From Balneolales bacterium (GTDB taxonomy: Bacteria; Bacteroidota; Rhodothermia; Balneolales; Natronogracilivirgulaceae), in contig SKWQ01000002.1 in assembly GCA_007128855.1 (NCBI GenBank), positions 4,325 through 68,324 of the forward strand: DNA of 64,000 bases, given 5' to 3'. This document shows positions 1,161 to 51,328 of the stretch, piece after piece (the first letter of the stretch is position 1; the number at the start of each line of letters is the position of its first letter). Under the pieces are notes generated by a model. It was not told the origin of the DNA. It saw only the letters and a program-made list of their open reading frames with translations, and searched no databases. The position numbers were made by a program, and so were the translations under genes.

Positions 1161-1667
1161 ATGAACCAGTCAGAAATAATCGATAATGCCATGATTAAAA
1201 ATGAGAAACGCATGCAAGACCCCGCCTACAGGCAAATGGAAATAGCCGTTGGCATACTTATCAGGAACATTCTGGAAATCCGTAATGTGACGGAATGGGC
1301 AGCTTTCATGGGCTATTCCCGTTCGCATTTCTGCAGGAGTTTCACGAAGAGGTTTCATGAGAACCCCAAACTTGTGCTCCGCAGGGCGCGGCTCAGGAAG
1401 GTGTGCCGTGTCATACAGTCAGATTGGTCTGCCACTGCCTACAAGGTTGCCCTTGAGTCTGGTTTTGAGAATGACAAGGCACTGCACAAGTTTCTGCATC
1501 GCAACTTCAGGAAAGGGTTTCTATCATTGAAGGATGAGCTCAAAAGAAATGCCTTCCGGGCAAGGAAAATCATATCACATGCTTCTGAATCGGACTATGA
1601 ATACATCATCGGCGGAGGGAAGCAGGGGTCAGACCGACCTTCCTTTCCAGGTGGGCCTGGAATCTGA
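1161..1667 (+). CDS. AraC-type helix-turn-helix domain protein (stand-alone HTH)
   Basis: 168-aa ORF. 'WAAFMGYSRSHFCRSFTKRFHENPKLVLRRARL...ALESGFENDKALHKFLHRNF' matches the two-HTH AraC/XylS pattern. No obvious ligand domain. Confidence 0.6.
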   Translation: MNQSEIIDNAMIKNEKRMQDPAYRQMEIAVGILIRNILEIRNVTEWAAFMGYSRSHFCRSFTKRFHENPKLVLRRARLRKVCRVIQSDWSATAYKVALESGFENDKALHKFLHRNFRKGFLSLKDELKRNAFRARKIISHASESDYEYIIGGGKQGSDRPSFPGGPGI

Positions 1668-16242: not shown

Positions 16243-18138
16243 ATGAAAGTTCGCTTCATCCTTCCCATTACGATTCTGTTAATGCACTCGACGTTTCTTG
16301 TCCAGTGCGGAAAGGTCGATACAGACCGCGAGGCAAACCGTCTCTTTGTAGAGGCATACCAGCAAACCGAATTGGCTTTGCAAAGTGAAGCACGTGACCC
16401 TGCTGAAGCGCATGCCCACTACAGGCAGGCACTCGAGAAAATCGAGAGCATCATTTACAAGTATCCCAATACCTCTGTAGCTGTAGATGTCGCTCAGCAT
16501 CGGACCCGGATCGGTGAGATCACAATCGGCGATTTAAGAAACAAAGTTCCACATTTTGCTGCCAAGGCCGATGCACTCGAGAGTTTTCACAATCTGACCC
16601 TTTACCTGATCGACTTTGAGGATGTGGAAGAGCGTGCATTGCGGCGGCTTTCCTATGCTGCCATACTTAAGAGGCACGGACAAAACAGCCTTCATGACGA
16701 ACTCGTGCATCAGGTAAGACGTCAGGCCGACCGGCACTGGGACAGGCAGGTCATAGACCGGCTCTACTATGAACTGTCAGGGCACCATGCTTCCCAGTCG
16801 CAATGGGATCAAAGTCTGCAGCTTATTGACCGGCTTCAGGACCGCGAACTTCTTTTCGGGTCTCTGGACCACCTGCTTGAATCGGGATACTTGCGTGACC
16901 GGAGCGGCCGGGGTTACCTGGATGTAGCTGCTTATCTGGACTATCTTGATCCGGTCAACCGCATCCGGCTTGCCGGACGTCTGATCGATGACCTGATTGC
17001 AACCGGTAATCGTCCCCAGGCCATGGCCATACTGCAGGAAGGGTTCCCTGCTCCGGAGGAGAACAATGTGCTTGACTATGTCAATGCCCTTGCCCGCTTG
17101 TCATCAGTCCTGGCCGGTCATGGTGAGGTCGGGGCCAGTAAATCCGCGATAGCGCAAATTGTAAACTTCGATTCTGATTATGCTGATTTTGCTCTTCGGG
17201 ATCTGTCCGTGACGATTGCCCGATACGGAGATCTGGAAGAAGCACTTGGACTTGCGGAAGCATTCGAACGCCCCTACTTCCGCAACACGGCATTTGCCGG
17301 CATTGCCCTTGAGATGGCGCGCAGGGATAGTGTAGCCCAGGCATTGAGCTTGTTGGGCCAGATCCCGGATAATATTGACGAAAAAACGGAAACCATGCTT
17401 GAACTTGCCGGCATGGATCTCGATGGGGAATCGCTTGCCGACTCTCTTCTTCAGGTGGCGGTGTCACGCATCCAGACCCTGGACTCCCCCATTGCCAGGA
17501 CAAGCTCCCATATACAATTGGCGGACATACATATCCGGCATGACAGGCGATCCATGGCTGCGGAAGCCATGGAGGAGGCAGAGCGTCATGCATCCGGGAT
17601 TTCCGATCCTGAAAACATCAATAAGCTTCTAACCGATATCATAAAGAGATGGATTTCACTTGGAAGGCCTGATCGGGCTTTGGATATTGCCGCTTGGTAC
17701 CACATGGACCACCCATCCTTCAGGGCAGGGATGCCCGATATGTTCACCTTTGCCATTCAGCGAGGTTTCCACGATTTTGCACGAACTCTGGCCGGAATTA
17801 CCGATGACAGGGCCCGTTATATGCATGTGCTTGTATCTGTCTACCTGGAACAGGGGATGATTTCCCAACCATCCGAACTTGCCTACGAGATCAGGAATTA
17901 TTACTGGCGGTCCCGTGCACTTGCACAACTCTCAACAGAATTGAAAATAAAGGTGAACACAGCTACCGCGGAGCGGGCAGCAACCGATGCCCTGTTGACG
18001 ATTCAGAGGATCCGGGACCGGGCCGAAAAGAGGCAGGCGCTTTATCATACGGTATCACTACTTTCCGCTGCCGGGATAAACATGGACCGGGACCGGCGTC
18101 CGCTGGTCATTGAACTGATCGGTCACATCGACAGCTGA
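16243..18138 (+). CDS. Hypothetical lipoprotein, helical-repeat (TPR-like) architecture
   Basis: 631-aa ORF. Signal peptide with lipobox 'FLVQC'. The remainder is a long alpha-helical, repeat-like sequence. Confidence 0.6.
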   Translation: MKVRFILPITILLMHSTFLVQCGKVDTDREANRLFVEAYQQTELALQSEARDPAEAHAHYRQALEKIESIIYKYPNTSVAVDVAQHRTRIGEITIGDLRNKVPHFAAKADALESFHNLTLYLIDFEDVEERALRRLSYAAILKRHGQNSLHDELVHQVRRQADRHWDRQVIDRLYYELSGHHASQSQWDQSLQLIDRLQDRELLFGSLDHLLESGYLRDRSGRGYLDVAAYLDYLDPVNRIRLAGRLIDDLIATGNRPQAMAILQEGFPAPEENNVLDYVNALARLSSVLAGHGEVGASKSAIAQIVNFDSDYADFALRDLSVTIARYGDLEEALGLAEAFERPYFRNTAFAGIALEMARRDSVAQALSLLGQIPDNIDEKTETMLELAGMDLDGESLADSLLQVAVSRIQTLDSPIARTSSHIQLADIHIRHDRRSMAAEAMEEAERHASGISDPENINKLLTDIIKRWISLGRPDRALDIAAWYHMDHPSFRAGMPDMFTFAIQRGFHDFARTLAGITDDRARYMHVLVSVYLEQGMISQPSELAYEIRNYYWRSRALAQLSTELKIKVNTATAERAATDALLTIQRIRDRAEKRQALYHTVSLLSAAGINMDRDRRPLVIELIGHIDS

Positions 18139-25365: not shown

Positions 25366-26180
25366 AGGATTTGTTCAAAAATGGCGTCTGACCTTCTTCC
25401 TCTGATGCCCTCAAGATGGAACTGAAGATAGGCATCCAGATGATGGATCAGATGTTTTATGTCCGAAACCGGAAAATCGGCTTTCAGCAGCAAGGAGTTC
25501 TTGCCGTCAGCAATATAACGCAGATATTTGCTCTGAGATTTTGTCAATCCAAAACAAAGGCCACTGTCGGCTTTTTCGGTAATGCTTCCGCTTTCCACGT
25601 TCAGGTAACACGTGAACTCGTTTTGAGGTTCATTTACCATATGCCCGGTATGGCTCCGGGCCGAAGTTTCTTCCGGCCCGGTTGCATTTTCTGGAAGGTA
25701 CAGCGTGATGCCGATACCTGCTATGTGGGCAAGCCGGAACTGGATATAGGGAAAAAGGAATCGGGGATTGGATTCGGTCTCGTGAAGCCATGCCAGGAAA
25801 CCTGTCAGAAAAGCGGACATGTCCGGCATGGGTTCATACTCATGGCTCATCTGTTCGCAGAGTTCCAGTGTAACCATGCCGATTGCCATTTTCTCCATGT
25901 TTTGGTGGATGCGCCACGTCGCCATTTTTTGCGTCACATCGCTCAGGTTCTGAACATCCCGCGTCGATTTGAAATAATAGGACACATCCAGGATGGCTCC
26001 CGGCTGCAGGAGTCCGCCAAATTTATTCTTGTTCCTTCGGGCTCCCCGGGCCATGACGGCCATTTTTCCATGCATTTCACTCAGCAGCGTCACGATCAGA
26101 CTGCTCTCACTGAAAGGGATGGTTTTCAGTACGATGGCGGAGGTATCGGTGATCATAGCGGTGTGGCGGATGTCAGTCAA
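25362..26180 (-). CDS. recO: DNA repair/recombination mediator RecO
   Basis: 272 aa. The N-terminal OB-fold signature 'AIVLKTIPFSESSLIVTLLSEMHGKMAVMARGARR' is typical of RecO. Confidence 0.8.
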   Translation of the reverse strand: MTDIRHTAMITDTSAIVLKTIPFSESSLIVTLLSEMHGKMAVMARGARRNKNKFGGLLQPGAILDVSYYFKSTRDVQNLSDVTQKMATWRIHQNMEKMAIGMVTLELCEQMSHEYEPMPDMSAFLTGFLAWLHETESNPRFLFPYIQFRLAHIAGIGITLYLPENATGPEETSARSHTGHMVNEPQNEFTCYLNVESGSITEKADSGLCFGLTKSQSKYLRYIADGKNSLLLKADFPVSDIKHLIHHLDAYLQFHLEGIRGRRSDAIFEQIL

Positions 26181-26198
26181 TCAAACAAACGGCCGGGA

Positions 26199-28712
26199 TC
26201 AGAACCGGATCCAGCCCTTGTTTTCCAGCAACTGAACCAGGGATGGCAGATAGGTCAGGGCCGAGAAAAGGGTCAGGCCAATGCCGACCACGGCCAGGAT
26301 ACCAATGGAAGTCAATCCGGGATGATTGGTCAGCAAAAGCCCGGCAAAACCCAGCATGGTTGTAAACGACCCGATGGTGATGTGCTGGCCAGTGCTTTTC
26401 AAAACCGCCGACATGCTTTTCTTTCCCTCCTCGCGGTAGCGGCTGGCCAGGTGTACTCCGTTGTCGTTGCCGATACCAAGGATTGCCGGCAGCACTACGA
26501 GATTGTACATGTTGAAAGAAAGCCCCATCAGCATCATGGCCCCGAAGGTCCAGCTCAGTCCAATCAGCAGTGGAAGCATCGCTATGACCGTCCATCGGAA
26601 CGAACGGAATCCGATGTAGACAAGAATAAATATCATAACAAGTGTTGCTGCTACCATATAAGGGCTCTCATCTCTCATAAGTTCGAGCATTTCGGCAGCC
26701 ACAATGGAAGTGCTTGCAGCATAATAGGTGCTTCCGTCGCTGGTCTGGATCACGCCTATCTCGTTTTTGAAGGCAATCGAATTCCGCCCGTCAGAAAGAC
26801 CTATGGCCGGATAGACCATGACAAAGCGTCCGACCTCGCCATCGCGTGTGAGAAATCTGTTTTTCAGGAACTCCGGCACATCATCCACATGGAGCGGTTC
26901 GGTTACCGCCGAAGCCCTTCTGAGGATGTCTATGTATTCCCCCTCGATATCTTCCATGAAGGGATCACTGATCAATTCACGGATTTCGGCGATTTTTGCC
27001 AGTTTGACATCTTCTTCCGCCTGGTTGACGGGAAAGCGCTCTTGGAGGGCCTCAACGGCCAGGATGGTCGTTTCCGGGTTGTTTTCCTTTTTGTCGCGGA
27101 TGGTCTGCAGTATCAGCCGCACTTCTTCGTCGGTTTCCGCAAGGATGTAGGCGGGATTCCGGCGCCCGGTCGCCTGGTCAATATTCCCCCTCAGTTCACG
27201 GTATTCCTCATATTTTGGAAACTCTGGTTCCAATTTACCGAAATTGTACTCAAAATAGAGTTTATCGGTGTTGAAAAGCACTACGGCAACGATAAACGTT
27301 CCTGCGATGAAAATGGTCCTGGCAAGCGGAAAGGGTTTGGCTTCCCCTGATTTCACATGGGTGTGAAACAGGTTCTTGTTGATGAGGATGAGCCGGTACC
27401 GTTCGAAGATGACGATGATGGCTGGCAGGATGAAGAGCATGGACAGGTAGGCCAGTACGATGCCGGTACCCGAAATGAACCCGAATTCCGAAAAGCCCCT
27501 GAAATCTGCGATCACCAGAACAAAAAGAGCTACGGCTGTCGTAGTGGCACTGGTCATGATGGCCGCACCGGTGCTGTCGTAGGTATGCAGCAGCGCGTTC
27601 CGCACGTTATCACCTGCCGAGCGTTTCTCCAGGTATCGCGCATAGAAGTGGATCCCGTAATCAATTCCGAGTCCGAAGAGGATCACGAACAGCACCGAAG
27701 TCATGGTGTTGAGCGTTCCGAAGACAAAATAGGTGATGGCAAAGGTGATGCTCAGGCTGATGAGCAGCGGAATGCCGATGACCAGAATGGGAACCGGGAA
27801 CCGGATCAGGTGGTCGAACAGGGTGTGCCTGCGATGCCGGCGGTGTCCGCGGCGGTAGTTGATGATCAGTTTGACCAGGAAGTAGATGCCCACAAGGAGT
27901 ATCACGCCGGTGATACCTGAGCCGAAGCTGGTGATCACATCCCGGATGATGGAATCCAGCTCCATAAGATGCCTTTCAAGCCGTCCGCCGGCAACCGCAA
28001 CCATTTCCGGATGGAAGGTAGCAGGTTCCATCTCCGCAATCAGATCTTCAAAAGCATGGAACAGGCTTCGGATGTATGTGAGGTCACTCTGCGATCCCGT
28101 GGGAAAAAAACTGAGGACGAGGCTGGAGCTGTCCTGGTTGACGGGATATTCGGAAGGAATGAGTTCATTGTACATCTCCTCAAACTCCCTCAGCCGCTCC
28201 TCTTCATCATCCTCTTCGTCGTCGAAATCATCCTCAAAATCGATGAAGAACGGGTTGGCCTCAAGCCGCGCGCGCTCCAGGCGGTCTTCCAGGAAGTCGA
28301 TCACCTGGTCAATCTCGTCTTCCGTTGAAAGATAAAGGGCATAGTCCCTGAGCACTTCCACATCCCGGCGGTACTCGTAACGATTCACATAAAAGTCATC
28401 GAGCCGGTTGTTGTACAATTCCATCGCCCGTGGAATGAGTGCCTCTGCAAACGCCTTGTTTGCGTCAAAATCCGGGGAATTGATGGTCACTTCCAGCGGG
28501 GTCTCCCCTCCTACGGAATCACGGAGCCGCTCCAGGGCCTGCACGCTTTCATAGTGATCCGGCAGCAGGCTTGCCAGGTCGGTGTCGATCGCAAGTCGCG
28601 TGGCATAGAACCCCGCAGCAACTGCCAGTGACAATGCTATGAAAAGCACAGCAAAGGGGTAGCGGTAGTTGATAAGAATGAGAGGCCTTAGCAGGGCGAG
28701 TAATGTCCTCAT
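26199..28712 (-). CDS. MMPL / RND-superfamily transporter (HpnN-like lipid exporter type)
   Basis: 837 aa. Two 6-TM bundles, each preceded by a large periplasmic loop. 'FGLGIDYGIHFYARY' and 'LGIGNDNGVHLASRY' are the duplicated MMPL/SSD-like motifs. Confidence 0.85.
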   Translation of the reverse strand: MRTLLALLRPLILINYRYPFAVLFIALSLAVAAGFYATRLAIDTDLASLLPDHYESVQALERLRDSVGGETPLEVTINSPDFDANKAFAEALIPRAMELYNNRLDDFYVNRYEYRRDVEVLRDYALYLSTEDEIDQVIDFLEDRLERARLEANPFFIDFEDDFDDEEDDEEERLREFEEMYNELIPSEYPVNQDSSSLVLSFFPTGSQSDLTYIRSLFHAFEDLIAEMEPATFHPEMVAVAGGRLERHLMELDSIIRDVITSFGSGITGVILLVGIYFLVKLIINYRRGHRRHRRHTLFDHLIRFPVPILVIGIPLLISLSITFAITYFVFGTLNTMTSVLFVILFGLGIDYGIHFYARYLEKRSAGDNVRNALLHTYDSTGAAIMTSATTTAVALFVLVIADFRGFSEFGFISGTGIVLAYLSMLFILPAIIVIFERYRLILINKNLFHTHVKSGEAKPFPLARTIFIAGTFIVAVVLFNTDKLYFEYNFGKLEPEFPKYEEYRELRGNIDQATGRRNPAYILAETDEEVRLILQTIRDKKENNPETTILAVEALQERFPVNQAEEDVKLAKIAEIRELISDPFMEDIEGEYIDILRRASAVTEPLHVDDVPEFLKNRFLTRDGEVGRFVMVYPAIGLSDGRNSIAFKNEIGVIQTSDGSTYYAASTSIVAAEMLELMRDESPYMVAATLVMIFILVYIGFRSFRWTVIAMLPLLIGLSWTFGAMMLMGLSFNMYNLVVLPAILGIGNDNGVHLASRYREEGKKSMSAVLKSTGQHITIGSFTTMLGFAGLLLTNHPGLTSIGILAVVGIGLTLFSALTYLPSLVQLLENKGWIRF

Positions 28713-28956
28713 GCAAAAAAGTGTTATTCCGTTATAATCGCTATTGAAGTTACAAAAAAAAGTTGAAACTTAGGCTGGCGGCCAATGTTTATCACCGTTA
28801 ATATGGACACTGGTAAAGCTTTTTTAGCTGGCGCGCCTGCGGGTAGTAATACAGGGCGCAGACAGACGTTCCATATGTTGGCTGCAGTCGCATCGAATTG
28901 CAAAGCTGTGCCTTAGGAAAGACACCGTACGACTGCCGGTCATTATCCAAAAGAAC

Positions 28957-30090
28957 TTGTATCCCATGTTTGATTTATTCCGATTGAAAAGTATTACGTA
29001 TAAGACTTCCTCGTATTTTGCGATCAGATTTCTGCCGTTCCTTTTTTTGCTGTTCCCCGCAACTGTGGCTATGGCGGAAAAGGATTCCTCTGACCGTCCT
29101 GCAGGCACTGGTTTCCCTGATGGCGGGCTGCGCCAGACCGAATGGACGGATATGCTGCCACACACAAAACAGGGGGATTACTACAACGAGTTTTGGAGTT
29201 ATCATTTTTTCCTTGAGGATGACCTTCATTTGCACATGACATTTTCCCTGGCCAATTTCGGATCCATGAAAAGTCCGGTCAGCGGGGGCAAATTGTTTGT
29301 TTCCAATTTCAAGGGGAGAAACTACAATGTCGCCAGGGAGTATGCCATAGAACACTTTGTAATAGACGAGGAGCAGGACAAAATCCGCCTCCATCCCGGG
29401 CGTGACATCTATCTGTCCGGAAAGCTCCCCTACGAGCATCATGTTTTTTTCCAGACGTCCAAGGACGGCGTCAGCTACCTGGTGGATCTGGACTTTCACG
29501 ACATCGATCAGGGATATACCTGGGGCGATGGTATTTTCCGGCTGGAAAGCGAGGATATGGGCATCTTCGTACATATTCCACGGGCCGAGGTCAGCGGCAT
29601 CGTTGCCATCAACGATGACACATTGCACGTCAGCGGAACGGCCTACATGGATCACACCTATCAGACCAACCTGTCCTCAAAAGTGGTGAACAAGGGTTTC
29701 AGGCATATCACGCATACCGACAAGGGATTTCATATCGGCTACTATCTCATCCCAAAAAGGAGATCGCGGACCGATGTAGTCGGGTTGGCACTCAAACGGG
29801 AAAATTCCCCCACCCTGCTTGAGAAGCCCGTTCAGGTCACCGTACTGGACTCGGACCGGATCGGTGGCCGGTCTGTACCGCGCCATATCGAAGTTGTCTA
29901 TAAATCGGGCAATCGCAGCGTACTCAGCAGGCAGGATGATTTTCAGCATGTCTCCTTCCTTGAGGAAATCGGGGGCATACGCCGCCGGCTTGTCAGAAGT
30001 TTTCTGGGGGGTGAGGTGATCGAATATGTCGGCACCGGAGTAATCGATGGCAGCACACCTACAAATTATAATTTTTTCCTGGTTCATTGA
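28957..30090 (+). CDS. Secreted hypothetical protein, possibly AttH/CrtC-like lipocalin/beta-barrel fold
   Basis: 377 aa. Signal peptide ending 'ATVAMA|EKD'. 'YYNEFWSYHFFLEDD' is reminiscent of the EWWY motif of AttH/CrtC-like proteins. Family assignment is low confidence. Confidence 0.5.
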   Translation: MYPMFDLFRLKSITYKTSSYFAIRFLPFLFLLFPATVAMAEKDSSDRPAGTGFPDGGLRQTEWTDMLPHTKQGDYYNEFWSYHFFLEDDLHLHMTFSLANFGSMKSPVSGGKLFVSNFKGRNYNVAREYAIEHFVIDEEQDKIRLHPGRDIYLSGKLPYEHHVFFQTSKDGVSYLVDLDFHDIDQGYTWGDGIFRLESEDMGIFVHIPRAEVSGIVAINDDTLHVSGTAYMDHTYQTNLSSKVVNKGFRHITHTDKGFHIGYYLIPKRRSRTDVVGLALKRENSPTLLEKPVQVTVLDSDRIGGRSVPRHIEVVYKSGNRSVLSRQDDFQHVSFLEEIGGIRRRLVRSFLGGEVIEYVGTGVIDGSTPTNYNFFLVH

Positions 30091-30121
30091 ATCGTATTTT
30101 GCCCTCACTGAATTATCTGTC

Positions 30122-30937
30122 ATGTCGAAACAGGAAAATATTTCAAACAGTATACCGAGGGTCAGTTGTCTGATGGTCACTGCCAACCGCATGCGCCTTG
30201 CGGAGAGGGCTGTAAATTGTTTTAAGAATCAGACGTATCCCAACAAGGAGCTTGTGGTCATAGATGACGGCAAAGAGGACTACTCCCCCCTTTTCCGGGG
30301 TATCGAACCCCGGGACATCACCTATGTCCGGATCCCCAGGACCTCCAAGCTGGTGCTTGGCACTCTCCGCAACATTGCCCTTGAATACGCACAGGGCAAC
30401 TACCTGGTTCAGTGGGATGACGATGACTGGTATCATCCACAAAGGATTGCATTCCAGGCAGCTTATCTGGATCAGGGGTATGATGCCTGCTGCCTTTCCG
30501 CATCGCTGATGCATCTGGACAATCACGACTTTTTTTCTCTTCCGTATATTGGGTATCTTCCGAATGGCATTCCCGGTAGCATTATGCACCGGCGCAGCGA
30601 CAGTATTAGGTATCCGGAGTTTCGGAGGGCGGAAGATACGGTCTATCTCCGGCATTGGATGAAACGGCGGTACGCAAAGCTTCCGGAAGAGCATGCCGGA
30701 CTTTTCATCCGTTGTTTCCACGGTTCCAATACCTGGGAGGAGGAGCATTTCACCCGCCGAATCCGAAACAGTCCTGTCAGCTGGATGAACTACATGTATC
30801 ACAAGTTTTGGAAGGGGGACCTGTCGGGGCATCCGCGTTTCCGGCTCCCCTCTAATATCCGTTTGGCATTTGAGCAGTATGTCGATGATTCGCGTTCGCT
30901 GGACCTTTTCACAGCGATCTCGTTCCAGGAAGTATAG
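30122..30937 (+). CDS. Glycosyltransferase family 2
   Basis: 'VSCLMVTANRMRLAERAVNCFKNQTYPNKELVVIDDGKED' and the acidic motif 'WDDDDWYHP'. The ORF is open from 30047; Met at 30122. Confidence 0.8.
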   Translation: MSKQENISNSIPRVSCLMVTANRMRLAERAVNCFKNQTYPNKELVVIDDGKEDYSPLFRGIEPRDITYVRIPRTSKLVLGTLRNIALEYAQGNYLVQWDDDDWYHPQRIAFQAAYLDQGYDACCLSASLMHLDNHDFFSLPYIGYLPNGIPGSIMHRRSDSIRYPEFRRAEDTVYLRHWMKRRYAKLPEEHAGLFIRCFHGSNTWEEEHFTRRIRNSPVSWMNYMYHKFWKGDLSGHPRFRLPSNIRLAFEQYVDDSRSLDLFTAISFQEV

Positions 30938-31029
30938 CGCTTTCGCAACCGGGTCAGATGGTGGTCCGTCTGATGTCACCCGGTCATGGAAGCTGCCTCA
31001 TACGTTGAAAACCCAATTCAAAGAAACTG

Positions 31030-32112
31030 ATGAACATCATATATGTACAAAGCTATCCCGTTTACCATGACCTGATCGATGAGCAGGAGTTCGCAGAAAT
31101 TGCGAATCGGGACAAGTGGATGCCTGCATTGACTTCCCAGAGAGGGTACCCTTCTCAATTGTGGGCCGGTGGACATAAGTCGATGAAAACCGAGTGGCAG
31201 TATGACAACCTGCCGGGGGTTCCGATCCGCATATTCAAAACGGACCAAAGCGAAGGAAAAAGTCGCAACCACACCTCGCAGGCGCTCATTAAGGCAGCCA
31301 GGGAATCAGAAGCCGATCTCTTTGTCATCAAGGGTATGGACGGCGGCATCGGGGTGCAATTGGCCATGGAAGTGCTCATACCCAGGCGGATCCCCTTCGC
31401 GATTGTCATCGGCGGGGAGTGGTATCATCCAATAGTGAAACATGCCGTGGCGGTTCTCTATGAAACCGAGTATCAATTCCAGCAGCTGACCCGTCGCACA
31501 CTTCGTTTCTGGCGGAGCGTCGTGCCGGTACAGAAAATGATCCGTTTGCCGAAATCAGTGGACACCCGGCACTTCTCGCCAGACCGGGAAACAGGGAAAA
31601 CCCTTGACGTGATTGCAGCAGGTAGGCTGATCTCGCATTACAAGAATTACCAGCCTCTGTTTGAGCTTTCAAAAAAGAAGAAAGTCGGGGTGATTGGAGG
31701 CGGGCCCTTGCTTCCACAATTCCGGAGAAAATATCCGGAAATAACCTGGTTCGGACCGGTCTCTTATTCTGAAGTGCCGACCTATCTGAACATGGGCAAA
31801 TTGTACTTTCACAGTGGATATCGTGACCACTACCCCAGGACCATATCGGAAGCAGCGGCATGCGGAGTGCCCCCTGTAGCCTTCGAAGACATCATCCATG
31901 AGGATGTCATTCCGGAGACGATCGGACTGCGCGTATCCAAAAAAAATTATGTGGAAGAAATATCCGCTCTACTTGACAAACCCGAACTGCTTGCAAGGAA
32001 GTCTGCGGAATCGAGGAGCTACGCCAAAAAGAACCTGCACCACCTTTCAGCCCTGCCTGCCATAAGGGAAATGATCTCACGGGTACGTTCGTTGCGCAAC
32101 GCTTCGGGATGA
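31030..32112 (+). CDS. Glycosyltransferase, GT-B fold (family 4/1-like)
   Basis: 360 aa. The C-terminal half has 'GGGPLLPQF...YFHSGYRDHYPRTISEAAACGVPPVAFED', the E-x7-E-like region of GT4 enzymes. Confidence 0.7.
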   Translation: MNIIYVQSYPVYHDLIDEQEFAEIANRDKWMPALTSQRGYPSQLWAGGHKSMKTEWQYDNLPGVPIRIFKTDQSEGKSRNHTSQALIKAARESEADLFVIKGMDGGIGVQLAMEVLIPRRIPFAIVIGGEWYHPIVKHAVAVLYETEYQFQQLTRRTLRFWRSVVPVQKMIRLPKSVDTRHFSPDRETGKTLDVIAAGRLISHYKNYQPLFELSKKKKVGVIGGGPLLPQFRRKYPEITWFGPVSYSEVPTYLNMGKLYFHSGYRDHYPRTISEAAACGVPPVAFEDIIHEDVIPETIGLRVSKKNYVEEISALLDKPELLARKSAESRSYAKKNLHHLSALPAIREMISRVRSLRNASG

Positions 32113-33047
32113 CGCACCAGATAAAACGGGCCTGGGACCGCATGTCGGCGTTTGGCAACAGCCGAAATGGAAAAAAACTGCTCCGGTTTGCGAAATATCT
32201 GATCCAGGCGGTGATTGTGCTCATCCTTATAGGGCAGATCATTCAGATCGGATGGCGGAACATCCTTTCAGAGCTGCCCGTCCAGCCCTTTTATTACATC
32301 CTGTTCCTGCTGCTCTATTTCACCCTTCCCGTCACGGAGTATTTCACCTACAGCATCCGGTGGCCGATCCGGTTCTGGCAAAGTCAGGCGGTATTTCTCA
32401 AGAAGAGAATTTATAACAAGGTGGTGCTGGGATATTCCGGTGAAGTCCAGCTATACTTCTGGCTGAGCAGCCGGATGGGGATCGACAGGACCGAGGCCTA
32501 TGAGGTGGTCCGCGACAATAACATCCTCTCCACACTTGCCTCCACGTCTGTCGCGTTTCTGCTTCTTGTTGCCTTTACCGTAACCGGAAGGTTGCGTCTC
32601 GACGAGTGGGTATCACTGGACCAGCTGTTTTTTATGGTTCCGGTTGGACTGGCCCTGCTGGCAGCGGCGCTGCTGTTGCTCCGCAAGTACCGGGCCTATC
32701 TGTTTAGCATGTCCACCAGGCCGGCCTTGCTGATCTTTTCGCTGCACTGTGGACGCATGCTTCTGCTCACGGTTGTCCAGGTGGCACAATGGTACGTGGT
32801 GATGCCCTGGGTTGCGTTCGACATCTGGTTCACCATGATCGTCCTTCAGCTCATTCTCAGCCGGATACCCTTTCTGCCCAGCAAGGATCTGGTCTTCATT
32901 GGTACGAGCCTGGAGTTTGTCCGTCATGCGGGGGTATCAGCCGCGGGGATTGCGGGTTTGCTGCTTGTAAATCAGGTGCTCGACAAACTGATGAACCTGA
33001 TCATCTTCGCCATGCTATCACTGATTGAGCGTCACAATCAGGGGTAG
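32109..33047 (+). CDS. Polytopic membrane protein, LPG-synthase-TM / flippase-like family (tentative)
   Basis: 312 aa, about 8 TM helices. The start overlaps the GT4 stop (ATGA at 32109-32112). Family assignment comes from overall topology and context only. Confidence 0.55.
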   Translation: MTHQIKRAWDRMSAFGNSRNGKKLLRFAKYLIQAVIVLILIGQIIQIGWRNILSELPVQPFYYILFLLLYFTLPVTEYFTYSIRWPIRFWQSQAVFLKKRIYNKVVLGYSGEVQLYFWLSSRMGIDRTEAYEVVRDNNILSTLASTSVAFLLLVAFTVTGRLRLDEWVSLDQLFFMVPVGLALLAAALLLLRKYRAYLFSMSTRPALLIFSLHCGRMLLLTVVQVAQWYVVMPWVAFDIWFTMIVLQLILSRIPFLPSKDLVFIGTSLEFVRHAGVSAAGIAGLLLVNQVLDKLMNLIIFAMLSLIERHNQG

Positions 33048-33054
33048 CAGCACC

Positions 33055-34095
33055 TCAGGGTTCAACCGTTGCTTTTCCGGTAAGATCCTCCCATTCCCGC
33101 TCGGCGAACCGGTCAAACCACGGCTTCTGATGGTGCCAGCCAAAGTGCAGTATATAGGGTGTGACCCAGATGTGATCATCTCCGCGCGGAAGCGCCCGGA
33201 ACAATCCGAATAGCAGGTTTCGCGCTGTGTCGTTATTTATTCCACGGAGTGAGTGGACAAATGGGTTACAGTAATACTTGCAGGAGACTTCAGAAAAATC
33301 ATCGCTGACCCTTGTCAGTGAATGAATGAAGTCGAGCTGGATGCTTTCCTGGCCATTGAACCATGGATAGACAAACAGGTTCATCATGGATACGGCCATT
33401 CCCAGGCTCCACTCGCAACTCTCCAGGTTCCTTCCCTTTTCCTTCCTCCTGCTGACGAAATGGGTCTCGGCCTTGCGTTCAAGCAGATCTCTTGCCAGTT
33501 CGTTCACTTTGCGGGTCGTCTCCCGGTCTGCAGCGTACATCACTCCTGTTTGCACCCTGGCCAGATGGCTCAGACCAAAACGCCTGAGGGTCCGTTGCCG
33601 CCGCCGCAACACGATATCTGAAATGATCCGGATGTTTTTGTGGGATCCGAAAAAAACGTCCGCTGATTCCTGACCGGTGATGGTATAGGGATATGGCCGG
33701 AGCATCTGCCATACCCTGTCCGGGTTCCGGCACCAGATCATGTCAGAATCAAGATAGAGGTTCCGTTCGAATGGCATGTAGTGGTGAAGGTTGTGCTTGA
33801 AGCCGACTATGGATTGGTGGTCCTGATGCAGGTCGATGACCATGTCGAACGGCAGTTCAAAAGAAAGGGACTCCAGCTGCTGTCTGTGCTGCGGGCTGCA
33901 GACCAGGGCAATGGGCCGGTTGCGGTCGTGGCGCTTCAGTGTGGCTGCCGAGACAACGGCATCCCTGAGGTATTCTTCCGTTCCGTAGCTGGTGTAGAGA
34001 TAGCCCTCGTGTTGCTTCAATCCGGCAGTGCCGGAAGCTAAATCCTCTTTTGTTGACTCAGTTTTGGAACCAGATACATCGGCCATTAAGGACAC
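33055..34095 (-). CDS. Nucleotide-diphospho-sugar transferase, GT8-like (tentative)
   Basis: 346 aa. 'YLYTSYGTEEYLRDAVVSAATLKRHDRNRPIALV' and 'ERNLYLDSDMIWCRNPDRVW' (DxD) match the GT8/glycogenin-like N-terminal pattern. Confidence 0.5.
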   Translation of the reverse strand: MSLMADVSGSKTESTKEDLASGTAGLKQHEGYLYTSYGTEEYLRDAVVSAATLKRHDRNRPIALVCSPQHRQQLESLSFELPFDMVIDLHQDHQSIVGFKHNLHHYMPFERNLYLDSDMIWCRNPDRVWQMLRPYPYTITGQESADVFFGSHKNIRIISDIVLRRRQRTLRRFGLSHLARVQTGVMYAADRETTRKVNELARDLLERKAETHFVSRRKEKGRNLESCEWSLGMAVSMMNLFVYPWFNGQESIQLDFIHSLTRVSDDFSEVSCKYYCNPFVHSLRGINNDTARNLLFGLFRALPRGDDHIWVTPYILHFGWHHQKPWFDRFAEREWEDLTGKATVEP

Positions 34096-34343
34096 TCCGT
34101 TGTTACTTTGCCTCTGACAGCTTTTTGAAATAATTGCGATGGATTCGTTGATGGAAGTCCGTTATTGGAAATTAAAGAAACGGAATTTCAGCACGTTTCC
34201 AAAATAGTGTTATTTTAGTTGAAAGGAAGCATGATCCACGGTCAAAACTGTTGGGTTTTTTCCTTTTTCATTCATTCTGAAAGTTTGCAATAACAGGTCG
34301 CTGCAGTGTCTTTGCGCAACGGCCGAAAAACAGGTCTGCAATC

Positions 34344-35129
34344 ATGGAACAGGGATCAACACTGGTGAGCTGTCTGTTGCCTGTCGCATCGACTCCCGAA
34401 CGGCTGGCCAGGGCGATACTTTGCTATCAACAGCAAATCTGGGAGCACAAGGAGCTGGTCGTCATCGATGGGGGCAAGATGGACCTTGCCCCACTGCTAG
34501 AGGATATCCCCACCGGTGAACTGCAATACATCCGGACTGGAGCTGACATCGACAGGGATATCATATCACTGAAGAATATCGGTCTCGAGATGGCAAGAGG
34601 TGCTCACATCATTCACTGGGACCCAGGTGACTGGCACCATCCGGAACGCATACATCATCAGATGGCACATTTTGGCGATGGGATAGAAGTCAACTGGATG
34701 TCCGGAACCCTGCTGCATATCGATCATCCTGAACTTGTTCATCATCCCTATGCCGACAGCCCCAAGGCAGGGTATGCCGGCAGTCTGATGCACATCAATG
34801 ACCCGGAAAAACGATATGCGGCAGCATTGCGCGGGCAACCCGATCGTGCTTTCCTTTCGCAGTGGGATCCATCCCTGGCGCGTCAACTGTCCATGGATTA
34901 TGCCTGGCTGCTTGTTCGAGGTCTGGCCGGCGACAAAAGAAACAGAAGACGTTTCCTGGCGGGTTTACGTGGCTCATCAGGTGATATGGCCCGTCTGATT
35001 TGGCTCAGGATGCGCGGGCGTGACCGGCTGTCGCACCCGCGTTTCCGCCTGACTTCGGAGGCACGGGACAGCTTTCAGAAATACCTGCATGAGTCGGGCA
35101 AGCTGGGTATCATCGCATCCATCTCGTAA
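34344..35129 (+). CDS. GT2-like protein, paralog of 30122-30937 with altered acidic motifs
   Basis: 261 aa. It aligns by eye along its whole length with the GT2 at 30122-30937 ('KELVVIDGGK' vs 'KELVVIDDGK'; 'WDPGDWHHPERI' vs 'WDDDDWYHPQRI'; 'SHPRFRLTSEARDSFQKYLHES' vs 'GHPRFRLPSNIRLAFEQYVDDS'). Confidence 0.7.
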   Translation: MEQGSTLVSCLLPVASTPERLARAILCYQQQIWEHKELVVIDGGKMDLAPLLEDIPTGELQYIRTGADIDRDIISLKNIGLEMARGAHIIHWDPGDWHHPERIHHQMAHFGDGIEVNWMSGTLLHIDHPELVHHPYADSPKAGYAGSLMHINDPEKRYAAALRGQPDRAFLSQWDPSLARQLSMDYAWLLVRGLAGDKRNRRRFLAGLRGSSGDMARLIWLRMRGRDRLSHPRFRLTSEARDSFQKYLHESGKLGIIASIS

Positions 35130-35145
35130 GCGGCGGGCAGCTGAT

Positions 35146-35730
35146 TCAGGCCCTGTCAGCCCTGCGGCGAAGGTTATCGAGCAGCGCATCAAAACCTCTG
35201 CGCCGGATGATGTTCTGAAAGGAGCGCTTGTAGGATTCGGCCGTCCAGGCATTGTCGATGGACATATCGGTAATCACCCACTGGCCGTCACGGTTGACCA
35301 TTTTGTAATGAACGGGGATGCGTTTACTGCCGTGTATGGCGGTGGTTACCACTTTGGCATCGCTGCCATCCACATTGATCTCCTCGTAGATGACCTCAGC
35401 CCGGTAAATGTCCAGCTGTTGAAGAGACTGGTCGCGGATGATCCGTGAAAAAAGATCCACGAACTCATCCTGATCATCCTTGTTCAGCTCATCAAACGTC
35501 TCATCAAGGGCATATCGGGCCATTTCCCGATAGTCTATCATATCGTTCACGATTTCACGCAGCTGTTCTTGTTGCTGGTCGGTGTACTCAGTTCCCTCCG
35601 GACCCAGGAGTTCCTTGATCTGGTTGTCCCGCTGCTCCAGTAATGTCCTCACCTCCCGTTCTTTTGAGGGAGTTGCGAAAACAGTTGCCGATGACACGAG
35701 CATTATGGTGAACAATACGAAATATTTCAT
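35146..35730 (-). CDS. MlaC/Ttg2D-family periplasmic lipid-binding protein
   Basis: 194 aa with a signal peptide. 'MIDYREMARYALDETFDEL...FVDLFSRII' and 'IPVHYKMVNRDGQWVITDMSIDNAWTAESYKRSFQNIIRRRGFDALLDNL' follow the MlaC pattern (compare E. coli '[21 protein letters not shown]...KGIDGL'). Confidence 0.6.
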   Translation of the reverse strand: MKYFVLFTIMLVSSATVFATPSKEREVRTLLEQRDNQIKELLGPEGTEYTDQQQEQLREIVNDMIDYREMARYALDETFDELNKDDQDEFVDLFSRIIRDQSLQQLDIYRAEVIYEEINVDGSDAKVVTTAIHGSKRIPVHYKMVNRDGQWVITDMSIDNAWTAESYKRSFQNIIRRRGFDALLDNLRRRADRA

Positions 35731-35851
35731 GACTGCGATGTTTGAATTTGGATTCGTTCCTGCTGATCCGGTGTTGCCTGCTGTCCGGATGAGTATTTGT
35801 TACTGGTTTATACGTTTCATCGGTGATTTTGTTCGATTTGGGTGCAGCAGA

Positions 35852-37267
35852 TCATCGGGCGCTGCCGCCTGGCGTCAACTCGCTGATCGGAAGTCCTGCA
35901 GACCGATGGAGTCGCGCAATTCTAAGATTGAGGTCAAACGTAAGCTGGCTGATCTCGAGTTCCAGTTCCATCTTCTTCTTAACGGCGTCCAGCAGGTTTC
36001 TGACATCCCCGAATCCGATATCCAGGTCAATTTGTTCGGTCCGGACCCACTCGCTGCTGATCTCCAGGGCCTGGACCCGGCTTTTCCTTCTGGATTCAAT
36101 GGTCCGTGCATCGCGGTACCGGTCGCTCAGTTCCAGCAAGATTCCATCCGAGGCGGCATCATGGAAATCGTCAATCTGTCGTTTCTGGATCCTGGAGCGT
36201 TCGACCTGGTTGCGGATCTGCAGAAAGTTCAGGTTTTGCTGAAAACCGACGCCTATCCGCGCAGACATGTAATTGGTGTTGTTCCGTATAAATGGATTAT
36301 TCTGTCGCGGACGGTTGGGAGTATATCCGAAACCGGCACTTAGTCCGAGAAACAGACCGGGATAGTACTGTGCCCTGGCGGCATCCACCCCGTAAGAAGC
36401 CGCATCACTGGCGGCCCGTAACCCTTTCAATTCGGAGCGGTTGAACAGTGCGCTGTTCTCATAGAATCCAAAATCCTGGATGGAAGTTGCCACCGGGTCG
36501 AAAAAACGCTCAGCCGGCAGATAGACGCGGTCGGATCCGCTTGCCAGCACCATGTCCCAGGATCTTCGGATGAAGTCACGTGTCTGCTCCATTTCCGCAA
36601 CCTGTGCTTCGAACTCTGTTTTGAGGATATAGAATTCAAAGACGTCTTTCTCTTCGATGGATGGGTCCCCTTCATCCCTGAGTCGCTCCAGCTCTCTTTC
36701 GACTTCATTGAGCTGCCTCTGTGCATCGCTGATGAGCCGCTCCAGGTCCGAAATCAGCAAGGCCGATTGATAGAGTTCAAACAACTGGAGCGTAAAAGTC
36801 TCATTTTGGGCATCCAGTTCGTAACGGGCGGCTTCTGCCCCTTTTCTGGCAGCGCGGGAAAGGTTGTCGATGGCCCCCCAGGTGTAAATGGGCTGAACAC
36901 CGCTTACCTCAGCCTGAGTAAAAATACCCCAATCTTCCCAGTCGTTTTCCAGATTCGGGTCCAGATAGTATCTGCCAGGGGTGATATCAGGGTCCTGTGA
37001 CTTGACGCCTGGCACCAGTCCATGGGCCGTAGTAAGTCTCAGGTTGGGCAGTATCCGGGCGGCTTGCGCCTGACGCACCCTGTTCTCGGCCAGGTCCACA
37101 TTCCTGCGGCGCGCGTCCAGGTTTGCCGAATACTCCTGTGCAATCTCGGCAAACTCCGCGAACGTGATGTGGACGGTATCGGGTTCCTGGGAGTGGGCTC
37201 CTGCTGCTGGATGTGCGAATAGTACCAGGAGGAACACGAAAATAAAGGGTGACGTGATCTTCTGCAT
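35852..37267 (-). CDS. TolC-family outer membrane efflux protein
   Basis: 471 aa with a signal peptide. It has the two-repeat OEP architecture, with long helical segments alternating with short beta segments ('LDLAENRVRQAQAARILPNLRL...'). Confidence 0.8.
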   Translation of the reverse strand: MQKITSPFIFVFLLVLFAHPAAGAHSQEPDTVHITFAEFAEIAQEYSANLDARRRNVDLAENRVRQAQAARILPNLRLTTAHGLVPGVKSQDPDITPGRYYLDPNLENDWEDWGIFTQAEVSGVQPIYTWGAIDNLSRAARKGAEAARYELDAQNETFTLQLFELYQSALLISDLERLISDAQRQLNEVERELERLRDEGDPSIEEKDVFEFYILKTEFEAQVAEMEQTRDFIRRSWDMVLASGSDRVYLPAERFFDPVATSIQDFGFYENSALFNRSELKGLRAASDAASYGVDAARAQYYPGLFLGLSAGFGYTPNRPRQNNPFIRNNTNYMSARIGVGFQQNLNFLQIRNQVERSRIQKRQIDDFHDAASDGILLELSDRYRDARTIESRRKSRVQALEISSEWVRTEQIDLDIGFGDVRNLLDAVKKKMELELEISQLTFDLNLRIARLHRSAGLPISELTPGGSAR

Positions 37268-37290: not shown

Positions 37291-37318
37291 AAAAAAAAAA
37301 GCTCCTTTGCGGAGCTTT
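37291..37318 (-). terminator. Rho-independent terminator downstream of tRNA-Ser and the atp operon
   Basis: On the minus strand: 8-bp stem AAAGCTCC/GGAGCTTT (37298-37305 and 37311-37318), loop GCAAA, followed by a T-run (the + strand A-run at 37291-37300). Confidence 0.8.
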
Positions 37319-46227: not shown

Positions 46228-47388
46228 ATGCCTGAATACATACCCTTCAACCGCATTTTCAAGGACGCCGAAGAGCGCAAGGCCCTGGCAGATGCCCTGG
46301 ATGGTGATTGCTGGCACGGGGACGGACCCGCCGGCAAGCGGGTGGAGTCGTACCTGGGCGAATGGCTGGGATCCCCTCACGTTTTTCTCACAACATCCTG
46401 CACGCACGCCCTGGAAATGGCCATGCTGGTGCTTGACATCGGTGAGGGCGACGAGGTCATCATGCCGTCGTTCACGTTTGTCTCAACGGCCAACGCTGTG
46501 CGGATGCGGGGTGCCCGGCCGGTCTTTGCCGATATCCGGGACAGCGACCTGACCATGGACCCGGAGGATGTGGCCCGAAAGATAACCCCATCCACCCGGG
46601 CGGTGATACCGGTGCACTACGCCGGGGTTTCGGCGGATTTCGACGGGCTGCGGAAGGCAGTGGACGGACGGGATATCGCCATTGTGGAGGATGCCGCCCA
46701 GGCGGTGGGGGCCTACTGGAACGATCGCGCGCTGGGTACGGTGGGCGACATCGGCTGTTTCAGCTTCCACGATACGAAAAACATCACCTGCGGTGAAGGC
46801 GGCGCATTTCTTACCGGGGATGCCGGGCTGGCCGAGAAGGCCGAATGGGTCCGTGAGAAAGGCACGAACCGGTCCGCGTTCCTTCGGGGTGAAATCGACA
46901 AGTACACCTGGGTGAGCCAGGGCAGCAGCTACATTCCGTCGGACCTGCTGGCTTCGCTGCTGGAAGCGCAGTTGCGGAAAAAGGAGCGGATCCTGGAGGC
47001 ACGGGCCGGTGTTTGGCACGCTTACAGGGACCGGCTGGCATCGGCCGCCGACAAGGGATGGATCCGGCTGCCGGAAATCCCGCCATATGCCCGGACCAAC
47101 TACCACATTTTCCATTTCCACGTCAGGGACCTGTCCGACCGGGATCCTCTGCTGAACCGATTCCGGGAAGCCGGCATCGGCGCATCGTTCCATTATGTAC
47201 CCCTTCACAACGCCCCCTATGCCCAAAAGATCCTTGGCGCACAGCCGCCGCTTCCCCGTACCGAAGAGCTGGCGGGGACGCTGATCCGGCTTCCGCTCTT
47301 TCCTGACCTGGAAATAGTGAAGGAAGTGGTCGCTGATCGTGTGCTGGCGGTGCTTACGGACTATTTCACGGGGAAACGGGGAGACTGA
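46228..47388 (+). CDS. DegT/DnrJ/EryC1/StrS-family sugar aminotransferase, WecE (dTDP-4-amino-4,6-dideoxyhexose transaminase)-like
   Basis: 386 aa. 'IPFNR...CTHALEMAMLVLDIGEGDEVIMPSFTFVSTANAV', 'VEDAAQAVGA' and 'SFHDTKNITCGEGGAF' (PLP-lysine context). Confidence 0.85.
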   Translation: MPEYIPFNRIFKDAEERKALADALDGDCWHGDGPAGKRVESYLGEWLGSPHVFLTTSCTHALEMAMLVLDIGEGDEVIMPSFTFVSTANAVRMRGARPVFADIRDSDLTMDPEDVARKITPSTRAVIPVHYAGVSADFDGLRKAVDGRDIAIVEDAAQAVGAYWNDRALGTVGDIGCFSFHDTKNITCGEGGAFLTGDAGLAEKAEWVREKGTNRSAFLRGEIDKYTWVSQGSSYIPSDLLASLLEAQLRKKERILEARAGVWHAYRDRLASAADKGWIRLPEIPPYARTNYHIFHFHVRDLSDRDPLLNRFREAGIGASFHYVPLHNAPYAQKILGAQPPLPRTEELAGTLIRLPLFPDLEIVKEVVADRVLAVLTDYFTGKRGD

Positions 47389-47476
47389 CCATGCGGATGG
47401 GACGTGCTGCGAAACTGTTTTTTTGTGAGGAGAATTTCTTGCATGTGACCATGCGTGTGACAAACGGGATGGAACA

Positions 47477-50055: not shown

Positions 50056-50158
50056 GCAGGTCCGTCATGAACGTGACCGCTTTTTTTCCTGGCCAGGACC
50101 CGCATCCACCCATGACATTACCTCACATTCATTTACCATCCAGCGATCCTGCACCCTG

Positions 50159-51319: not shown

Positions 51320-51328
51320 GGTTATTCA

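Follow-up and report, generated by a model that had tools for sequence, protein, structure and literature searches.

A lipid-transport operon and a variable glycosyltransferase island in Balneolales: a candidate locus for glycolipid synthesis and export

How lipids other than lipopolysaccharide (LPS) are transported to the outer membrane in diderm bacteria outside the Proteobacteria is largely unknown. Mycobacterial glycolipid exporters of the MmpL type are encoded beside glycosyltransferases (GTs), methyltransferases and sulfotransferases (MmpL3 for trehalose monomycolate, MmpL8 for sulfolipid-1, MmpL4 for glycopeptidolipid and MmpL12 for lipooligosaccharide, LOS), and in group 2-type capsule and other glycan loci conserved export regions flank a serotype-specific region. 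For hopanoids in Proteobacteria, transport by HpnN (structures 5khn and 5khs) together with the MlaC-like HpnM, and HpnS, has been proposed (PMC12324291), and for aryl-polyene lipids a relay of the RND protein ApeM, the LolA-like ApeL and the LolB-like ApeN has been proposed, with the glycosyltransferase ApeJ (PMC8253772). Here we analyse a locus at positions 26199-37267 of a 64-kb stretch of DNA (the window) from contig SKWQ01000002.1 of a soda-lake Balneolales bacterium, whose nearest genomes are 'CSSed' Balneolales and Cyclonatronaceae metagenome-assembled genomes (MAGs). The original prediction had read nine open reading frames (ORFs) there as a glycosyltransferase island bracketed by lipid-trafficking genes; all nine are present in the ORF list with the coordinates and strands claimed, and their genuineness is backed by hundreds of homologs or conserved orthologs apiece. 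The locus is a compact candidate for lipid transport to the outer membrane, as it combines an RND/MMPL extractor, an MlaC-like carrier and a TolC-family partner with a dedicated and highly conserved glycosyltransferase. No description of a combination of MlaC, MMPL and a glycosyltransferase was found in the searchable literature, and a search there for DUF3047, a family met in relatives of the locus, gave a single metagenome-correlation paper.

A gene triad shared by Balneolales and Rhodothermales

The strongest single result is the conservation across the Rhodothermales of a triad of genes for a TolC-family outer-membrane protein (OEP), an MlaC-family protein and a GT8-like glycosyltransferase of 346 aa (p346). 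In the window these genes, and that of the MMPL transporter, are as follows.

35852 to 37267, minus strand: TolC-family outer-membrane protein (OEP); PF02321 at 1.9e-28, signal-like N-terminus
35146 to 35730, minus strand: MlaC-family periplasmic lipid-binding protein; PF05494 at 6.7e-29, signal-like N-terminus
33055 to 34095, minus strand: p346, conserved GT8-like (GT-A, DxD) glycosyltransferase by Foldseek; likely ATG start at 34086 (343 aa)
26199 to 28712, minus strand: HpnN-like MMPL/RND (HAE3-type) inner-membrane transporter, 837 aa; Pfam MMPL at 3.6e-42

A scan of one genome per species returned 324 relatives of p346, and the best 80 loci, each of about 20 kb, were compared by tblastn. 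In 49 of 60 Balneolales loci the GT8-like gene directly follows the OEP and MlaC genes. Re-querying with a divergent member of the p346 family gave five Rhodothermales loci (Rhodothermus profundi, Salisaeta longa, a Rhodothermaceae MAG and two further MAGs), all of which hold the triad in the same order and on the same strand, with 30-240 bp (in most cases 30-100 bp) between the genes, and every other neighbour differs from locus to locus. The best conserved of the three in these loci is p346, with 50-55% identity to the window protein, compared with 38-44% for MlaC and 30-34% for the OEP. The fact that p346 stays with OEP and MlaC across two orders while all else changes argues for functional coupling, and the three genes probably represent an ancient, operon-like functional unit.

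Within the Balneolales the backbone reads AtpA-AtpG-OEP-MlaC-p346, then a variable stretch, then MMPL-RecO-HtrA. The MMPL gene lies 0.3-9.7 kb downstream of the GT8-like gene in 43 of 49 Balneolales loci, and the adjacency of the housekeeping genes is less stable (AtpG in 41/54 loci, RecO in 17/41); in other genomes MMPL is followed by TrkHA, a beta-lactamase or Tex. Two minimal loci (L054 and L075) consist of OEP, MlaC, the GT8-like gene and MMPL, with some 350 bp between p346 and MMPL and nothing inside. The synteny comparison suggested by the original prediction thus came out in its favour as far as the bracket is concerned, as transport genes enclose glycosyltransferase genes in almost every Balneolales genome.

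The family assignments of the three transport proteins are well supported. The MlaC-like protein matches PF05494 with 101.3 bits (cut-off 26) and has a hydrophobic N-terminus (residues 1-19); the OEP matches PF02321 in two stretches with 100 bits (cut-off 22) and TIGR01844 at 6e-16, and a sequence search of the PDB with it gave a spurious haemagglutinin match only. For the MlaC-like protein the best NCBIfam model is HpnM (TIGR03481, 3.5e-14), whose cut-off is not reached (52.6 vs 160.1); PDB 2qgu is matched at 2.4e-7 and the E. coli-type MlaC equivalog with 17.7 bits only. Neither the window nor the related loci contain MCE, MlaE, ABC or MlaA domains, the MlaFEDB and MlaA partners that accompany MlaC in an Mla system being absent there. 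The transporter matches PF03176 in two stretches (144.9 bits, cut-off 20.5, 3.6e-42) as well as the Patched/sterol-sensing domain models of Pfam. Its hydropathy profile shows one N-terminal transmembrane segment, a loop of ~230 aa, a transmembrane cluster at 266-479, a loop of ~200 aa and a second cluster at 684-818, in agreement with the MMPL-type topology of about 12 transmembrane helices and two large periplasmic loops. HpnN is both its best NCBIfam model (2.8e-71, below the cut-off) and its closest solved structure (B. multivorans HpnN, 5khn, 7e-24); MmpL3/4/5 are matched at 1e-12 to 1e-3, and the multidrug HAE1 models of NCBIfam at 1e-5 or worse.

The label GT8-like for p346 held at the level of the predicted fold and found no support in Pfam or NCBIfam. 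PF01501 does not match p346 even at E=10, and distant bridging homologs reach 17-20 bits against that model, below its cut-off of 24.3. The motif LYLDSDM is present as predicted, and its DxD is invariant across the family (D116-x-D118, in the form DSD, DVD or DAD), which also shares the motif HFGW-H-K. In Foldseek, the AlphaFold2 (AF2) model of p346 (pLDDT only 70) matches glycogenin 3usq (E 2.6e-7, probability 1.0, TM-score 0.41/0.54) and further GlyE and LgtC. On the basis of the invariant DxD and these matches, p346 is most probably a divergent GT8-like GT-A enzyme. The family is confined to Balneolales and Rhodothermales and comprises 809 database homologs, all named 'hypothetical'; in a set of 1.84 billion representatives it makes up no more than two full-length clusters at 50% identity, beyond which come GT-A proteins whose GT8 matches stay below threshold. 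Public gene calls for p346 begin 3 codons after the GTG start of the 346-aa version.

Two further genes were seen close to the triad in Rhodothermales-type loci. A protein of 535-547 aa without a Pfam domain is encoded convergent to the GT8-like gene, overlapping its end, in two loci (L090:10967-12574, minus strand; L092:10944-12587, minus strand); the two copies are 35% identical to each other, and the protein may be a further conserved partner. In one MAG an IS605 OrfB/TnpB (Cas12f-like) gene (L092:5608-6951, plus strand) lies ~1 kb upstream of the triad.

A variable island between the triad and the MMPL gene

The remaining five genes of the window locus occupy the stretch between MMPL and MlaC.

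28957 to 30090, plus strand: p377, secreted AttH/CrtC-lipocalin-like protein, candidate periplasmic lipid binder; hydrophobic N-terminal segment at residues 21-39
30047 to 30937, plus strand: GT2a, GT2 glycosyltransferase; PF00535 at 1.5e-15, likely start at 30122
31030 to 32112, plus strand: GT4 / GT-B glycosyltransferase; PF00534 at 1.8e-9, PF13692 at 1e-6
32109 to 33047, plus strand: TM312, polytopic membrane protein (312 aa) of an unnamed family; all-helical AF2 model, pLDDT 88
34344 to 35129, plus strand: GT2b, paralog of GT2a with a degenerate DxD; PF00535 at 22.3 bits, under the cut-off of 23.3

By hydropathy, p377, MlaC and OEP carry N-terminal hydrophobic, signal-like segments and the four transferases have no transmembrane segment. 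The start codons assigned to p377 (TTG), GT2a and p346 (GTG) could be off by 3-25 codons, and p377, TM312 and p346 have no match in Pfam or NCBIfam at normal thresholds.

To describe the island in relatives, 223 island ORFs were clustered and representatives scanned with Pfam, and content was counted over 52 loci. The specific set of glycosyltransferases is not syntenic: what lies inside the bracket is variable, and the GT8-like gene alone is conserved. The closest relatives (L006-L013) are the only other loci with the exact set of p377, GT2a, GT4, TM312 and GT2b. Since the bracket is conserved while its filling differs, the island appears to be a swappable, glycan-building block. The TM312 family is present in 30/52 islands, the GT2a family in 18/52 and an ortholog of the window-type GT4 in 7/52, in the last case in the closest relatives only; Wzx flippases occur in 17/52 and Wzi-like proteins in ~17/52 islands of relatives, along with several types of GT4, methyltransferases, sulfotransferases and UDP-galactopyranose mutase (Glf). 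DUF3047 proteins, which have a signal peptide, are found in 31 island loci (examples: L041:16185-16916, plus strand; L095:2469-3176, plus strand), and in 24/52 Balneolales loci DUF3047 is the gene directly upstream of MMPL, a position that suggests a function for this uncharacterised Pfam family. The window lacks DUF3047, and p377 takes the place next to MMPL there. A pair of membrane proteins without a Pfam match was seen in 15-16 islands (e.g. L041:14672-16059, minus strand), one of ~163 aa with the conserved motif GEFWPFSIYPMFSQAGNPW and the other of ~298 aa.

The coupling of glycosyltransferase genes to transport genes is borne out by gene packing in relatives, where GT4 or TM312 genes are co-directional with DUF3047-MMPL and separated by short gaps or overlaps. 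In L037 the GT4 and DUF3047 genes share 4 nt and the distance to MMPL is 93 nt; the same gene order, with ~92-93 nt before MMPL, recurs in the related loci L044, L046, L049 and L053. In L095 the TM312, DUF3047 and MMPL genes are co-directional, with a 1-nt overlap of DUF3047 and MMPL and three GT4 genes flanking.

With respect to the individual island proteins, p377 scores 16.6 bits against PF07143 (cut-off 22.5), the N-terminal lipocalin domain of CrtC is weakly matched by 10/12 members of its family (best 7.7e-4, below the Pfam cut-off), and a PDB profile search gave AttH 2ich as the sole match, a weak one (E 0.16). These matches suggest, tentatively, that p377 is a secreted double-lipocalin lipid binder. 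In L022, L024 and L029 an ortholog of p377, with no further gene beside it, separates MlaC from the GT8-like gene and shares their strand; in L020 and L033 it lies in the same interval with 1.9-3.4 kb of other sequence.

GT2a matches PF00535 with 58 bits (cut-off 23.3) and contains both of the motifs that had been read from it, IDDG and WDDDDW; among its orthologs WDDDDW is kept in 23/23, and DDG is near-invariant, one sequence reading DNG. Public gene calls give it a length of 271-296 aa. The GT4 assignment is likewise sound (PF00534, 37.8 bits vs cut-off 26.4; PF13692, 29.5 vs 27), and the stop codon of this gene overlaps the start of TM312 in the sequence ATGA at 32109-32112, as predicted. 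For GT2b, described earlier as a second GT2-like paralog, the paralogy stands (97% of GT2b aligns with GT2a, at 32% identity), the duplication seems recent and lineage-specific, and the score stays below the Pfam cut-off; its orthologs carry DPGD, DPAA, DASD, DESD or HESD at the motif, and it may be an inactive or regulatory pseudo-enzyme. GT2b occurs only in closest relatives (L005-L012), as an opposite-strand insertion between MlaC and p346, and in the window it splits the otherwise contiguous OEP-MlaC-p346 operon.

TM312 has 59 detectable homologs; the window protein matches nothing in Pfam at E=10 and nothing in a PDB sequence profile search. The only relative found outside the Balneolales/Rhodothermales group is in Blastomonas sp. 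AAP53 (Sphingomonadales; L086:9225-12668, plus strand), in an operon of GT2, TM312 homolog, DUF2141 and GT4. Since this homolog sits in a GT2/GT4 operon, the TM312 family would seem to be tied to GT2/GT4 chemistry in general. We ruled out orthology of the Blastomonas GT2 and GT4 to the glycosyltransferases of the window, the operon architecture alone being in common.

A candidate glycolipid pathway and its alternatives

Starting from the observed protein families, predicted folds, topology signals, synteny and gene packing, we infer a glycolipid as the substrate, and we give roughly even chances to a reading in which the inner membrane is the site of synthesis of a lipid-anchored glycan that varies between strains, and MMPL, MlaC and OEP export it in that order. 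Such a system would have three layers: the ancient operon OEP-MlaC-GT8-like, common to Balneolales and Rhodothermales; the HpnN-like MMPL/RND, joined to the triad operon in Balneolales; and a strain-variable glycan-tailoring island between the two, which in the window would consist of the AttH-like lipocalin, GT2a, GT4 and TM312, plus the degenerate GT2b inside the old operon. The cytoplasmic GT8-like enzyme would perform a conserved glycosylation of a membrane lipid acceptor, and the island glycosyltransferases would lengthen or vary its head group. TM312 may help to bring the lipid-linked sugar to the outer leaflet, a step that Wzx may carry out in other genomes. The proton-driven MMPL would pull the product out of the inner membrane, and secreted carriers (the MlaC-like protein and the lipocalin-like p377, with DUF3047 in relatives) would ferry it through the periplasm to the outer membrane and the TolC-family protein there. 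The unidentified glycolipids detected by thin-layer chromatography throughout the Fodinibius type strains (Balneolaceae; PMC12260241) are compatible with this reading but do not in themselves point to this locus. The glycolipid module of the original prediction survives in part, in most of its families and in the synteny of the bracket; its set of glycosyltransferases proved variable, and its product and export route keep the status of a proposal.

We think it unlikely, as a broader proposal, that this amounts to a trans-envelope lipid pathway of the Rhodothermia, in which an adaptor-free TolC-family protein would serve as acceptor for an MlaC-like carrier, the GT8-like enzyme would initiate the glycolipid, and in Balneolales an MMPL would feed it and the island would diversify the glycan. 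That the product of such a pathway would be a lipid-anchored, strain-variable surface glycan, parallel in function to O-antigen or to the mycobacterial MmpL glycolipids, is an idea we would put forward with equal caution.

Several observations weigh against the glycolipid export reading. Genes for the biosynthesis of a lipid anchor (acyltransferase, ceramide, polyprenyl, squalene-hopene cyclase) are found neither in the island nor in the window, and no membrane-fusion (HlyD-family) adaptor is encoded in the window region or in the ~90 related loci inspected. We know of no precedent for a TolC-family protein that takes lipid from an MlaC-like carrier. The Wzx and Wzi-like proteins of relatives fit a conventional polysaccharide pathway equally well. 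Within the Balneolales a fair degree of synteny extends to the flanking housekeeping genes, and inertia may account for some of the conservation. The original prediction had tied MMPL to the remaining transport genes; this tie is not seen in the Rhodothermales, where no MMPL gene lies within 10 kb of the triad in any of the five loci (0/5), and the MMPL link could therefore be a lineage-specific co-location. The flippase-like (LPG_synthase_TM) assignment of TM312 fails in hidden Markov model searches, as none of 43 family members matches PF03706 or any flippase-like NCBIfam model, HpnL (TIGR03476) included, at E<=1, and none has a match to another Pfam or NCBIfam model. What remains is a weak fold match, the top Foldseek match of TM312 being MprF (9goe_A, probability 1.00, query TM-score 0.47, 326 columns) at a weak E of 0.11, with all later matches at a query TM-score of 0.31 or less; a flippase-like role of TM312 is possible, a lead and not a finding. 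Finally, an apparent mutual exclusivity of TM312 and Wzx (per-locus p 2e-4) was lost on collapsing identical architectures (p 0.2 over unique architectures) and is not used as evidence.

The rival that survives best, rather unlikely in our view, places two unrelated systems side by side: a lipid-homeostasis OEP-MlaC operon, with or without MMPL (e.g. for phospholipid trafficking with the OEP in place of MlaA), beside a polysaccharide or LOS/O-antigen-type hotspot island, the GT8-like protein being an LPS-core-type transferase that merely shares the operon. The serotype-region-like variability of gene content is as expected for such an arrangement, and the Wzx, Wzi-like, Glf, methyltransferase and sulfotransferase genes in the islands of relatives are those usually met in polysaccharide loci. 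LOS/LPS cores are the substrates of the bacterial GT8 enzymes that have been characterised, for example LgtC, one of the Foldseek matches of p346; the MMPL gene is unlinked in Rhodothermales, and the housekeeping genes are part of the backbone synteny. This rival is harder to reconcile with the retention of the GT8-like gene beside OEP-MlaC across two orders, with the GT, TM312 and DUF3047 genes that overlap or closely abut MMPL in several genomes, and with a linkage of MMPL to the triad (43/49) that exceeds its linkage to RecO (17/41). The absence of Wzx, Wzy, PCP, OPX and an initiating phosphoglycosyltransferase, on which the original prediction based its argument that this is not a polysaccharide locus, holds for the window island, since no such domain is found by Pfam or NCBIfam in 26.2-37.3 kb; the argument itself loses force from the Wzx flippases and Wzi-like proteins encoded in the islands of relatives. 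That absence also counts against the rival, as does a second, classical locus of the Wzx type at 46-54 kb of the window, which shows that the organism does not depend on the glycosyltransferase island for a conventional glycan.

We hold it improbable that the locus serves the trafficking of a polycyclic or isoprenoid lipid (hopanoid-like, or a glycosylated carotenoid) in the manner of hpnI/hpnL/hpnM/hpnN, with p377 as a CrtC-like enzyme or carrier. HpnN (2.8e-71) and HpnM (3.5e-14) are indeed the best NCBIfam models of the transporter and the carrier, among solved structures HpnN comes closest, a GT2 (HpnI) and a membrane protein resembling LPG synthase (HpnL) are likewise encoded in hopanoid loci, and the p377 family has its weak matches to the CrtC lipocalin. 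The equivalog scores are far below their cut-offs, however, for HpnN (TIGR03480, 240.7 vs 751.85; NF052374, 136.1 vs 1100) and for HpnM (52.6 vs 160.1), no TM312 member matches the HpnL or LPG_synthase models, and the CrtC matches stay under the Pfam cut-off. Neither the 64 kb of the window nor the related loci that were examined contain a gene for squalene-hopene cyclase (shc), hpn biosynthesis, squalene or carotenoids. Given these scores, and with no shc within that scope, this is not the hopanoid system, and membership in it was rejected.

A conventional RND and TolC-like efflux pump for solvents, drugs or metabolites with incidental neighbouring glycosyltransferases, to which an OEP and an RND-superfamily protein in one neighbourhood and the first naming of MlaC/Ttg2D proteins for toluene tolerance might point, is very improbable, as the transporter is of MMPL/HAE3 type and nearest to HpnN and MmpL (HAE1 models at 1e-5 or worse) and the OEP is operonic with MlaC and a glycosyltransferase and not with the RND protein, and its classic form is rejected because no membrane-fusion/HlyD adaptor occurs in the window or related loci.

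If the glycolipid export reading is correct, it would provide a function for the p346 family of 800 'hypothetical' proteins as well as for DUF3047 and the TM312 family, and it would account for the unidentified glycolipids that are a routine finding in Balneolaceae. It would also mean that halophilic and alkaliphilic Bacteroidota-related bacteria have a serotype-like glycan variation on an MMPL-exported lipid. If it is wrong, the locus would be a glycan hotspot beside a lipid-homeostasis operon, which is ordinary biology, and the OEP-MlaC-GT8-like triad would still need explaining.

Setting in the window and comparison with known systems

The window sequence is found without differences in contigs of the Balneolales MAG GCA_007121885.1 and in a 192-kb ENA contig. 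The locus is flanked by housekeeping genes, with MutL, isocitrate dehydrogenase, HtrA and RecO on one side and the atpBEFHAG operon on the other. Two non-coding features were noted in or beside it.

28713 to 28956, no strand: divergent intergenic region between MMPL and the p377-GT2a-GT4-TM312 run, with presumed promoters; from ORF coordinates
37298 to 37318, minus strand: terminator-like hairpin and T-run (8-bp stem with 4 GC pairs, then T8) separating atpG from the OEP gene; pattern match only

A sigma-70 promoter scan found 11 sites, compared with 9.7 in shuffled sequence, with a consensus that is unsuited to this lineage and does not cover Bacteroidota-type promoters.

Elsewhere in the window, a second and classical glycan locus at 46228-53660 (plus strand) encodes a DegT-type aminotransferase, Acetyltransf_6, Wzx (Polysacc_synt), two GT4 and a GT2, and the GC content is 0.57-0.59 from ~44 kb onward vs 0.51-0.54 in the glycosyltransferase/lipid-transport region. 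A polytopic TMEM260-like protein of 987 aa is encoded at 4397-7360 (minus strand), the TMEM260 family having a link to protein O-mannosylation in eukaryotes. About 1.5 kb from it, beyond three small genes (YbeY, DUF494 and one unnamed), lies the gene of a 428-aa GT2 (1629-2915, minus strand) with a weak match to GT21, the ceramide/diacylglycerol glucosyltransferase family; the two may be another lipid- or protein-glycosylation pair. A 631-aa ORF at 16243-18138 (plus strand) without a Pfam match adjoins a trypsin-like protease gene and is also called on the public contig. An antisense 644-aa ORF at 25416-27350 (plus strand), opposite RecO and MMPL, is an artefact of mechanical listing, and the public contig calls no gene there.

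Compared with described systems, the locus is like group 2-type capsule loci in that conserved transport genes surround a hypervariable block of glycosyltransferase and sugar-modifying genes, and unlike them in having MMPL, MlaC and OEP instead of an ABC transporter or Wzx with PCP and OPX. With the Mla system it shares a secreted MlaC-family carrier (PF05494, PDB 2qgu); in contrast to that system, its MlaC gene is operonic with OEP and a glycosyltransferase, and the window has no MlaE, MlaF, MlaD or MlaA genes. The predicted GT-A fold and invariant DxD of p346 are those of the GT8 enzymes glycogenin, LgtC and GlyE, and its C-terminal HFG…K resembles the GT8 motif HxxGxxKPW, whereas the missing PF01501 match, a C-terminal extension of ~90 residues and an Arg-rich insert set it apart.

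ApeM/ApeL/ApeN offer a proposed parallel for an RND exporter, a periplasmic chaperone and an outer-membrane acceptor that serve a lipid made at the inner membrane and are encoded in its biosynthetic cluster. The locus differs from Ape in the fold of the carrier (MlaC vs LolA) and in the acceptor (TolC-family vs LolB-like), and its biosynthetic genes are purely glycosyltransferases, without ketosynthase, acyl carrier protein or dehydratase. Similarly, mycobacterial MmpL loci have an MMPL beside glycosyltransferases, and the methyl- and sulfotransferases that accompany them there are seen in relatives of the window locus; unlike those loci, ours belongs to a diderm envelope of the FCB (Fibrobacteres-Chlorobi-Bacteroidetes) group and not to a mycomembrane, lacks Pks and acyl-chain synthesis genes, and has MlaC-like and TolC-like partners.

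The hopanoid module HpnN-HpnM(-HpnS) likewise joins an HAE3/MMPL-type RND protein to a secreted MlaC-family protein, in loci that also have the GT2 HpnI and the polytopic LPG-synthase-like HpnL. The differences lie in the sub-cut-off scores and the lack of squalene-hopene cyclase or hopanoid genes nearby, in the outer-membrane partner, which is of the TolC family here and MlaA-like (HpnS) in the hopanoid module, and in the invariant GT8-like partner and the variable glycan island of our locus. It is best classed as a variant of the known MMPL/HpnN-HpnM-type lipid export that it resembles.

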